Sequence record: PQ390715.1
DNA: 64,000 bases
Reading direction: 5' to 3' (one strand)
Source of the DNA: Escherichia phage SHEFM2K
The first letter of the stretch is position 1; each line of letters opens with the position of its first letter. The notes under the pieces were generated by a model that was not told where the DNA came from, did no database searches, and saw nothing but the letters and a program-made list of their open reading frames with translations. This document shows, in pieces, positions 30,458 through 31,423 of this stretch. A program made the translations under genes and the position numbers.

Positions 30458-31423
30458 TTAGAAATCTTCGTATTCGTACCCTTTTGCAAGTACTAACTTC
30501 TTAAGCTTTTGCATAGCTTCACTGTACTTTCGGTGTATTGATGAACGGGATTTAACATATTTTCCATTATCATCAACAAAACCATTATCAGCAATCTCAC
30601 GAAGCGTTTCAGGTTCATATTCACCTAGACCATGAACACGCTGGATAATCTCACGTTCTTTAGTACTCAATTCGTTAGTTAGTTCATTGATAGCATAACG
30701 TAAAGGTGCACGGATACTATCAACATTGAGGTTAAAATCAGAAGCAGGTGAATGAATAATGTCACCTAATGTACCATCTGTAACACCGTCTAATGGTGCA
30801 TCCAGTGAAGTGTATTCGCTTTGAAATAATAAACAATTATTAACATGCTGAATCTCAATCCCAGTACCCTCTGAGATTATTTCAGGTGTTGGGCGAACAC
30901 CATGTTTACGCATATATTCCTGGCAGAATCTTTTTACTTTGATCTTATGAACACTCATATAACGTGGGAAGTGTACCATATAGTTAGCGTCAGAACTTTC
31001 GTTATAGACTGTCATGTAAATACTAGAAGAAGCATAGGTAATGAACTTAACATTCTTATTAAGATCAAAGGTTTTTAGTGCTCTCATGAACCCCTCAACA
31101 CCATATGAAATCTTATCTTCAAATGGGATATAACAAGTACATTTACTTGCTACATCAATAATCAGTCCATAATTGTAACGAACTAACAGTTCAGTGTTTT
31201 TCTTTACATTGATACCAGCTTGAATATCACGAATTAGATCTTCATTGGAAACATTTGGTGGTCGCTTAAGTGTAATATTATATTTGAAACTGCTTTGTAC
31301 TTTACCTTCATTATCATCTTTATCTTCAACGAAATCTAAGGCTTCTAGTGTGTTGACTTCTTCATTAGCAAAACATTCATCCAGAACTTCTTCGGCAATT
31401 GTATTTAAATCAAGCTTTTTCAC
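30458..31423 (-). CDS. RNA polymerase sigma factor, sigma-70 family (regions 2 and 4 recognisable)
   Basis: 321 aa; ..LLVRYNYGLIIDVASK..GVEGFMRALKTFD..KFITYASSSI.. (region 2-like) and ..STKEREIIQRVHGLGEYEPETLREIA.. (region 4 HTH-like); GTG start with AGGAGA RBS. Confidence 0.75.
   Translation of the reverse strand: MKKLDLNTIAEEVLDECFANEEVNTLEALDFVEDKDDNEGKVQSSFKYNITLKRPPNVSNEDLIRDIQAGINVKKNTELLVRYNYGLIIDVASKCTCYIPFEDKISYGVEGFMRALKTFDLNKNVKFITYASSSIYMTVYNESSDANYMVHFPRYMSVHKIKVKRFCQEYMRKHGVRPTPEIISEGTGIEIQHVNNCLLFQSEYTSLDAPLDGVTDGTLGDIIHSPASDFNLNVDSIRAPLRYAINELTNELSTKEREIIQRVHGLGEYEPETLREIADNGFVDDNGKYVKSRSSIHRKYSEAMQKLKKLVLAKGYEYEDF

Follow-up and report, generated by a model that had tools for sequence, protein, structure and literature searches.

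Introduction

Which promoters are served by a sigma factor that a giant Escherichia phage encodes for itself? This question is raised by a gene of Escherichia phage SHEFM2K (sequence record PQ390715.1), located on the minus strand of the 64,000-nucleotide (nt) stretch of DNA analysed here, which is referred to as the window. An original prediction, made without database searches, described the 321-residue product as a sigma-70-family sigma factor unlike T4 gp55, one that would imply a phage-specific promoter class and might explain why plus-strand genes are preceded by TATAATAA-like boxes. The family, the dissimilarity to gp55 and the phage-specific promoter class were all upheld, whereas the link to the TATAATAA boxes and the novelty of the gene were not. 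Overall, the protein belongs to the sigma-70 family and has the domains sigma2, sigma3 and sigma4, and it is the obvious candidate reader of the −35 variant in a third promoter class, A-rich-TG(A/G)GACAA-N12-TG(A/C)TATAAT, found beside the host-type and late classes.

Over the 3-kb region containing the gene, DNA identity is 99.1% with Escherichia phage SP27 and 97–99% with vB_Eco_slurp01, phAPEC6 (98.6%), 121Q, PBECO4, G17, Sharanji and others. The matched phages belong to the genus Asteriusvirus, with genomes of ~350 kb (the 121Q/PBECO4 group). Sigma proteins 99.1–99.7% identical were found in ~20 phage genomes, and a homologue is present in every Rak2-like genus examined. The gene, although treated as a discovery in the original prediction, is already known, because it is annotated in databases and mentioned in several papers: 121Q gp167, phAPEC6 gp066c, Sharanji RpoD (WNN14470.1), G17_00146 and its PBECO4 counterpart are the same gene at the same genomic position, annotated as RNA polymerase sigma factor, and nothing material differs between these published relatives and the present protein except the database names. 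The gene is mentioned in the papers on phAPEC6 (PMC7247149) and fEgEco12, and the Sharanji paper (PMC11895373) states that the sigma factor probably associates with host RNA polymerase. Iyer et al. (PMC7824862) described "group 2" jumbo phages with two kinds of sigma factor, a minimal gp55-type and a fuller RpoD-like one. The identification itself is therefore ordinary, the gene and its annotation being public and an RpoD-like sigma being listed as a hallmark of these jumbo phages in comparative papers. The present analysis corrects the family assignment and the attribution of promoters, and it adds two structural peculiarities and a specific promoter class with a proposed cascade. Together these make a testable proposal, with a defined promoter class and its listed sites, a predicted cascade, and a natural series of helix and −35 variants over three phage genera.

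What kind of sigma factor is encoded?

A profile search, the check that the original prediction had proposed, assigned the protein to PHROG 351 ("RNA polymerase sigma factor", E=1.9e-60) as its sole PHROG family. The superfamily model TIGR02937 scored 44.7 against a cut-off of 42.9 and was the only NCBIfam model above its curated cut-off, and Pfam Sigma70_r3 matched residues 162–226 with 37.8 bits against a gathering score of 25.3. The Pfam models of regions 2 and 4 fell slightly short, with 23.0 bits (E=7e-5) against 24.0 and 23.8 bits against 24.1, respectively; the latter covers only the first half of the region (residues 251–279) because a hairpin of 8–10 residues interrupts the helix-turn-helix. 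Sequence search of the PDB returned RpoD, SigA, SigB and RpoS chains (7e-17 to 1e-10). The AlphaFold2 model has a mean predicted local distance difference test (pLDDT) score of 70.9 and is confident at residues 50–146, 154–200 and 234–314, with residues 1–49 disordered, and a Foldseek search with this model returned exclusively sigmaS, SigA and sigma70 chains (best 5ipl_F, 2.8e-11). Region 2 and the region 4 helix-turn-helix, both claimed at the outset, were thus recovered, together with sigma3, and the four peptide strings quoted for them all occur in the translation.

Orthology to a named sigma subfamily was rejected in each case tried. As an RpoD (group 1) orthologue the protein fails, with RpoD equivalogs far below their cut-offs (RpoD_Cterm, TIGR02393, covers residues 79–283 with E=6e-25 and 88 bits against 354) and PF03979 and PF00140 unmatched. 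The scores were 70 bits against 379 for rpoS_proteo, 55.5 against 189.6 for FliA_WhiG and 56.5 against 234 for SigBFG, which rejects RpoS, FliA/WhiG and the SigB/F/G subfamily; an extracytoplasmic function (ECF, group 4) sigma was rejected on the presence of sigma3. A late sigma of the T4 gp55 type (PHROG 234/12791) was likewise rejected, since BLASTP against T4 gp55 gave E=0.12 and the PHROG search gave 351 only. The layout is group-2/3-like, sigma2-sigma3-sigma4 without a recognisable region 1.1 or 1.2. Database names for near-identical proteins vary (RpoD, RpoS, FliA, "group 2", hypothetical), and the GenBank names RpoD, RpoS and FliA are unjustified because the orthologue-level scores are far below the cut-offs.

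The protein belongs instead to a small phage-only sigma clade. An exhaustive HMMER search of 1.84 billion representatives yielded only 15 clusters at E<=1e-30; ordinary cellular sigma factors begin at ~1e-20, with a sharp gap in between. With this Rak2-like jumbo-phage clade, a subset of PHROG 351, the protein shares full-length similarity, an N-terminal motif, a sigma4.2 hairpin with the residues DxxGK, and the lack of a tryptophan pair; the hairpin is present and the pair absent in nearly all members.

Residues were mapped by aligning the protein with RpoD of E. coli and with its homologues in RaK2, CBB, XbC2, PHA46 and metagenomes. E. coli sigma70 and sigmaS have the same sigma2-sigma3-sigma4 fold and order and provide the best sequence and structure matches; unlike them, the phage protein lacks region 1.1 and the non-conserved region, and it gave no profile match to region 1.2. 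Pfam gave no match to region 1.1 or 1.2 in codons 1–49. In sigma2, the −11A pocket is mostly kept (F419, Y430, T429 and K426, with E420 replaced by D and R423 by K), and conservation of the sigma2.2 helix is partial (D403, I405, G408, G411, M413 and A415 kept). The residues that read the −12, extended −10 and −35 positions are changed. The region-2.3 tryptophan pair W433/W434 is S/S and is absent in every clade member aligned; T440 is replaced by Y and R441 by N, and the extended −10 readers H455 and E458 by Y and V. The positions of R436-Q437 hold Y-M here and in RaK2, and R-Q in CBB, XbC2 and PHA46. Where group 1/2 factors have the pair W433/W434 and, for −12 recognition, Q437 and T440, the phage protein has S/S, M and Y.

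In sigma4.2, R584 is kept, and E585, R586, R588 and Q589 are replaced by S, S, H and R, respectively. The insertion, FVDDNGKYVK (clade motif G[FY]xDxxGK), lies inside the helix-turn-helix and is predicted by AlphaFold to form a beta-hairpin with strands at 282–283 and 289–290 (pLDDT ~85). The recognition helix aligns past the insertion and is modelled with pLDDT 85–89, and the sigma4 helix-turn-helix (4.1–4.2) is recognisable despite the interruption.

Most of the clade shares the motif MKKLDLNxIxxEVLDECF at codons 1–18 (31370..31423, minus), which corresponds to none of the known sigma regions and has a structure prediction of low confidence.

A third promoter class

Genome-wide motif counts were made on the 350 kb of phAPEC6 that were assembled, and the promoter class was found by inspecting upstream regions after a k-mer enrichment screen of that genome. 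Sites of the form G[AG]GACA-N15-18-TAnAAT number 20 against 3.2 expected, all 20 on the gene strand, with 16 nt between the two hexamers in 17 of them. Strict forms with TG, including the TG(A/G)GACAA-N12-TGnTATAAT arrangement, number 13–17 against 0.07–0.25 expected, again all on the gene strand; they are part of the evidence for the phage-specific promoter class that had been anticipated. The extended −10 TG is carried by 15 of 17 middle-type sites, compared with 2 of 17 sigma70-type sites. When intergenic regions were anchored on TGnTAnAAT alone, with no assumption about the −35 element, an information peak was obtained at −20..−14 reading T-G-R-G-A-C-A, together with an A-tract at −29..−24.

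The phAPEC6 sites precede gyrB/topoII, the block of DnaB and primase-helicase, the DNA-polymerase block, the thyA block, ssb (two sites) and nudix/glutaredoxin genes, and one site lies 85 nt upstream of the gp55-like sigma gene. Those at 156042, 124228 and 136986 belong to the late-sigma gene, ssb and the DNA-polymerase block, respectively. Three middle-type sites were found in the window (19245, 45731 and 46835), two of them directly upstream of tRNA-Ser and tRNA-Gly (Table 1). A scan of the window for the motif of phage CBB (TGAAAC...TATA) gave 10 matches over both strands and no enrichment; the Asteriusvirus −35 variant differs from it.

Six tRNA genes (Thr, Asn, Met, two Ser and Gly) form a cluster at 42710..46794 (minus). 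The Rfam tRNA model made no call for tRNA-Gly and an extra weak call at 45520..45598, and one tRNA-Ser has the unusual anticodon ACT (ARAGORN).

Does the −35 element track the sigma4.2 helix?

Four phages allow the −35 element to be set beside the recognition helix. Asteriusvirus, which includes the source phage, combines the 7-mer TG(A/G)GACA with the helix SRSSIHRKY; RaK2 combines TGAAC(A/G) with VRGTLHYKF; and CBB combines the 7-mer TGAAACG with SKATLSRRY. WPEC5, whose sigma is only 59% identical overall but agrees in the helix residues, has TG(A/G)GACA and ARSSLHRKY, and keeps this 7-mer at 3 of 3 orthologous sites, a weak control in view of the close relatedness of the region.

The sigma factor of CBB (CBB_513) and that of GAP32 are early-region orthologues of the present protein, at 35% identity. 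The "divergent RpoD-like promoter" of CBB has the same architecture (7-mer, N13, TGnTATAAT) and precedes DNA-synthesis genes and the gp55-like gene; Table S6 of that paper lists the TGAAACG-N13-TGnTATAAT sites, including one upstream of the gp55-like gene (PMC5259590). CBB differs from the present phage in the −35 7-mer, in the recognition helix and in retaining R436-Q437, where Y-M is found here. The promoter class was not explicitly assigned to the sigma factor by the CBB authors (PMC5259590). In the syntenic replication module of RaK2, where neither the Asteriusvirus nor the CBB motif was found, TGAAC(A/G)-N12-14-TGATATAAT occurs at 6 sites against 0.25 expected, all 6 on the gene strand; the RaK2 paper contains no promoter analysis.

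PA5oct-like Pseudomonas phages have the late sigma and no homologue of this factor, and an RNA-seq-guided analysis of PA5oct reported only TTGAC/TATAATA promoters. The Asteriusvirus, RaK2 and CBB variants are found in phages of enterobacterial hosts. Region 4.2 of host sigma70 is the same across these hosts, so that a phage-encoded reader of the −35 variant is required, and this sigma is the obvious candidate. We infer that the G found instead of T at −35 could plausibly be read by the R in place of Q589.

The plus-strand boxes and the late system

The four plus-strand genes in the window encode three RCC1-repeat proteins and a virion structural protein (36220..37374; PHROG 10468). The motif ATAAATA, of T4 late type, lies 32 nt upstream of the virion gene, and the adjoining TATAATAA box is at 36192..36199. 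Upstream regions in phAPEC6 contain ATAAATA 26 times against 1.6 expected, a 16-fold enrichment, and the recognisable motifs upstream of its plus-strand genes are late-type in 16 cases and early-type or middle-type in none. Only 3 copies of the T4 late consensus, TATAAATA, were counted in the window, the looser ATAAATA being the enriched form.

A separate late sigma was found in phAPEC6. The product of gp237c matches PHROG 12791 (3e-154) and PHROG 234 (8e-18), aligns pairwise to T4 gp55 with E=2e-4, and is encoded next to gp46/47-like genes, as in T4. It was located through the phAPEC6 annotation and PHROG; tblastn with T4 gp55 against all phages was dominated by T4-like phages. Because ATAAATA is enriched and lies upstream of the plus-strand genes, and because a gp55-like sigma exists separately, the plus-strand boxes are best assigned to the late system, and the explanation of the TATAATAA-like boxes by the present factor is not supported. 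ATAAATA was likewise assigned to the late system by the CBB authors (PMC5259590).

The three RCC1-repeat ("regulator of chromosome condensation") genes stand in tandem at 62..3853 (plus) and are part of an array of ~10 genes in phAPEC6. Upstream regions in the RCC1-array part of phAPEC6 (0–25 kb) carry late-type motifs.

Expression of the sigma gene

The sigma gene begins with GTG at 31423..31421, and the coordinate 30458 marks its end including the TAA stop. The GTG start is supported by the conservation of the N-terminus MKKLDLN in homologues of other genera. The start codon, the ribosome-binding site AGGAGA and the gene's own terminator were all confirmed in the sequence as originally described; the terminator (30452..30429) begins 5 nt past the stop, and the authors of the phage G17 report annotated one at the equivalent position. 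The sigma gene is the last of a four-gene operon closed by this terminator (Table 1).

The genes of the window are small and nearly all on the minus strand. Host-type promoters, noted around the gene at the outset, are abundant: near-perfect TTGACA-N16-18-TAnAAT sites number 15, every one of them on the minus strand. This layout of promoters and operon suggests early expression of the sigma gene from host-type promoters. The orthologue CBB_513 was placed in the predicted early region by the CBB authors, who also predicted an RpoD-like promoter, Porf_510, upstream of the region with that gene (PMC5259590).

Table 1. Positions in the window of the sigma gene, its encoded domains, and the associated transcription signals
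Feature	Position	Strand	Basis or remark
Sigma-factor coding sequence, 321 residues, GTG start, TAA stop	30458..31423	minus	Open reading frame and profiles
Codons 1–49: conserved N-terminal motif, then variable acidic linker	31277..31423	minus	Predicted disordered
sigma2 (regions 2.1–2.4), codons 50–146	30986..31276	minus	Profiles, alignment, AlphaFold2
sigma3, codons 154–226	30746..30964	minus	Pfam Sigma70_r3, AlphaFold2
sigma4 (4.1 and 4.2 helix-turn-helix), codons 234–314	30482..30724	minus	Recognition helix S-R-S-S-I-H-R-K-Y
Insertion of 8–10 residues (NGFVDDNGKYVKS) between the two helices of the helix-turn-helix, codons 280–292	30548..30586	minus	Alignment, AlphaFold2
Ribosome-binding site AGGAGA	31429..31434	minus	Read from sequence; 5-nt spacer to GTG
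Intrinsic terminator ending the sigma operon	30429..30452	minus	10-base-pair stem with 5 G-C pairs, 4-nt loop, T-run
Three tightly packed co-oriented genes upstream of sigma (86, 139 and 165 residues)	31445..32629	minus	Gaps of 5, 1 and 21 nt
Host-type promoter TTGACA-N17-TACAAT, nearest upstream of the four-gene operon	32669..32697	minus	11/12 match
Host-type promoter TTGACA-N17-TATAAT, upstream of the sigma operon	32990..33018	minus	12/12 match
Candidate middle-type promoter TGGGACAA-N12-TGATATAAT	19217..19245	minus	
Candidate middle-type promoter TGGGACAT-N12-TGATATAAT	45703..45731	minus	Just upstream of tRNA-Ser (45692..45603)
Weaker middle-type site GAGACA-N17-TATAAT	46807..46835	minus	Upstream of tRNA-Gly (46794..46722)
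Degenerate middle-type site TGGGATG-N13-TGATATAAT	30395..30423	minus	Right after the sigma terminator, facing a ~500-nt stretch free of open reading frames
ATAAATA, T4-late-type motif	36182..36188	plus	32 nt before the virion gene; attributed to the late system and not to this sigma

A proposed cascade and its alternatives

These observations suggest a three-step cascade from host sigma70 to the RpoD-like phage sigma and on to the gp55-like phage sigma, to which we give about an even chance of being correct. Host E-sigma70 would transcribe the sigma gene early, as the last gene of the operon running from the promoters at 33018 and 32697 to the terminator. The phage sigma would then replace sigma70 on the E. 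coli core polymerase and direct it to the "middle" class defined above, with the altered region-4.2 recognition helix and the inserted beta-hairpin reading the variant −35 element. The middle promoters would turn on the genes of replication and nucleotide metabolism, the tRNAs and the gp55-like sigma gene, whose product would finally serve the ATAAATA late promoters. A broader version of the proposal, held with confidence just short of even, is that Rak2-like jumbo phages run a hybrid three-sigma cascade in which the hairpin-bearing sigma reads TGRGACA, TGAACA or TGAAACG plus an extended −10 and replaces AsiA/MotA appropriation, the sigma4 helix and the −35 element co-evolving between genera that share a host polymerase.

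Several points weigh against this proposal. The −10 part reads TGnTATAAT, which matches the host extended −10 perfectly and is usable by E-sigma70 without a −35 element, and it is invariant across lineages although the equivalents of Q437, T440, H455 and E458 are changed, partly in a lineage-dependent manner. The contacts L402, Q406, E407 and N409 of sigma2.2 to the beta' coiled coil are also changed. The covariation spans only three lineages, WPEC5 being a close relative in the compared regions, and the "middle" timing is deduced from the functions of the genes. A literature search for experiments or transcriptomes on this sigma, including core binding and promoter use, found none. In favour of the proposal, homologues of T4 AsiA and MotA were not found by tblastn against phAPEC6 (best match E=0.13, to an open reading frame unrelated by PHROG), a test of low power in which T4 gp55 itself misses the verified gp55-like gene.

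Could host sigma70 itself read these promoters? In that case, host sigma70 would read TG(A/G)GACAA-N12-TGnTATAAT through the extended −10, another phage protein, such as a MotA-like activator, would bind the 7-mer, or sigma70 would be remodelled, and the phage sigma would serve another promoter set. The optimal sigma70 extended −10, identical in the three lineages, fits such an arrangement, as do the residues at the TG- and −12-reading positions of the phage sigma, which are unlike those of sigma70. The middle promoters of T4, a phage with the same late system, work by precisely this logic, and a small helix-turn-helix regulator is encoded two genes upstream of sigma in CBB, XbC2 and GAP32. 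The 7-mer, however, is located at the true −35 distance (16-nt spacer) and not at the position of a MotA box, and from lineage to lineage the −35 variant changes together with the sigma4.2 helix; the k-mer screen gave no other enriched motif as a candidate promoter class of this sigma, and the failure to find AsiA and MotA, a weak test, points the same way. Reading by host sigma70 is the main alternative to the cascade and is considered unlikely, though it deserves to be taken seriously.

Two further explanations are both improbable, and to a similar degree. In the first, the protein would mainly compete for core RNA polymerase, acting as a host shut-off decoy that displaces sigma70 or other host sigmas and has no dedicated promoter class. 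Its early gene shares a host-takeover region with the gene of a T7 gp0.7-like protein kinase, its DNA-reading residues are divergent and its tryptophan pair is absent, all of which would suit a decoy. A full sigma4 helix-turn-helix, the clade-specific hairpin and a largely conserved −11A pocket have nevertheless been maintained across genera at 31–45% identity, which argues for selection on DNA binding, and a matching orphan promoter class exists. In the second, the factor would serve a narrow regulon, for instance the tRNA cluster or part of the delayed-early genes, and would not be a general middle-gene sigma. The positions of two of the middle-type sites in the window, directly upstream of tRNA genes, are in line with this idea; genome-wide, however, the motif precedes many replication and nucleotide-metabolism genes as well as the late-sigma gene. 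A decaying or non-functional acquired host gene, as the Pfam region 2 and 4 scores just under gathering and the failed orthologue-level NCBIfam cut-offs might indicate, is hardly credible for an intact frame with its own ribosome-binding site and terminator that is 99% conserved in ~20 phages, occurs in every Rak2-like genus examined and keeps the clade-specific features.

Comparison with known phage sigma systems

The proposed cascade can be compared with two classical programmes. In the Bacillus phage SPO1, the middle sigma gp28 replaces the host primary sigma and turns on the middle genes, among them those needed for late transcription, which then depends on gp33/34 (see also PMC13401047). 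An early-expressed phage sigma acting in a sigma cascade would be common to both phages, the role here being a proposed one; unlike the present factor, the SPO1 sigmas are short and very divergent, and the late step here involves a T4 gp55-type factor and not a second sigma70-like one. In T4, middle transcription occurs through sigma appropriation by AsiA and MotA, and late transcription through gp55. The likeness to T4 comprises a three-phase programme, a gp55-like sigma with an ATAAATA late system, and a sigma70-like −10 at middle promoters. The differences are that a complete sigma, unrelated to gp55, is encoded here, that AsiA and MotA were not detected, and that the upstream element is at −35 instead of −30.

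If the cascade is correct, T4-related giant phages replace the host sigma where T4 appropriates it. Sigma/promoter pairs that are orthogonal and function with the E. coli core polymerase would then be at hand, and the cascade would explain the structurally unusual sigma4 domain.

Neighbouring genes and other features

The gene directly upstream of sigma (31445..31942, minus) encodes 165 residues starting MTTVYIDKR..TDSRVTS. It gave a weak PHROG match to "peptidase HslV family" (9e-6) and no match in Pfam and PDB sequence searches, and it may encode an N-terminal-threonine hydrolase. The same gene is found directly upstream of sigma in RaK2 (46% identity, 5e-55) and PHA46, so that the pair is conserved, being adjacent in all three phages. 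An HNH endonuclease gene (28580..29368, minus; PHROG 35175) lies ~1.1 kb downstream of the sigma gene.

An open reading frame at ~15159..15833 (minus) corresponds by constant coordinate offset to gp031c of phAPEC6, whose annotation is T7/K11 gp0.7-like protein kinase. The gp0.7 kinase of T7 phosphorylates host RNA polymerase, and the present gene is a possible second transcription-takeover gene in the same early block as sigma.

The sigma terminator is separated from the following promoter (29899..29871) by ~500 nt without an open reading frame (29900..30395, minus), GC-richer than their surroundings as judged by eye only. A structured RNA in this stretch is unsupported, because no Rfam family matched and the minimum free energy z-score is only −1.2.

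Terminator-promoter fusions of the form AAAGGGTTGACTTCGGTCAGCCCTTTTTGnTATAAT, in which the terminator hairpin itself holds the −35 element TTGACT of the next promoter, recur at ~8190, 9910, 10840 and 21960 in the window (minus) and at 18704, 20885, 21810, 26385, 28812 and 32238 in phAPEC6. Outside the window, the 325–343 kb region of phAPEC6 contains ~20 near-identical promoters, AAAAAGTACTTGCA-N17-TATAATGTTTTACATC. Downstream of each come a G-rich hairpin and a small open reading frame, and the promoters probably constitute an immediate-early array.

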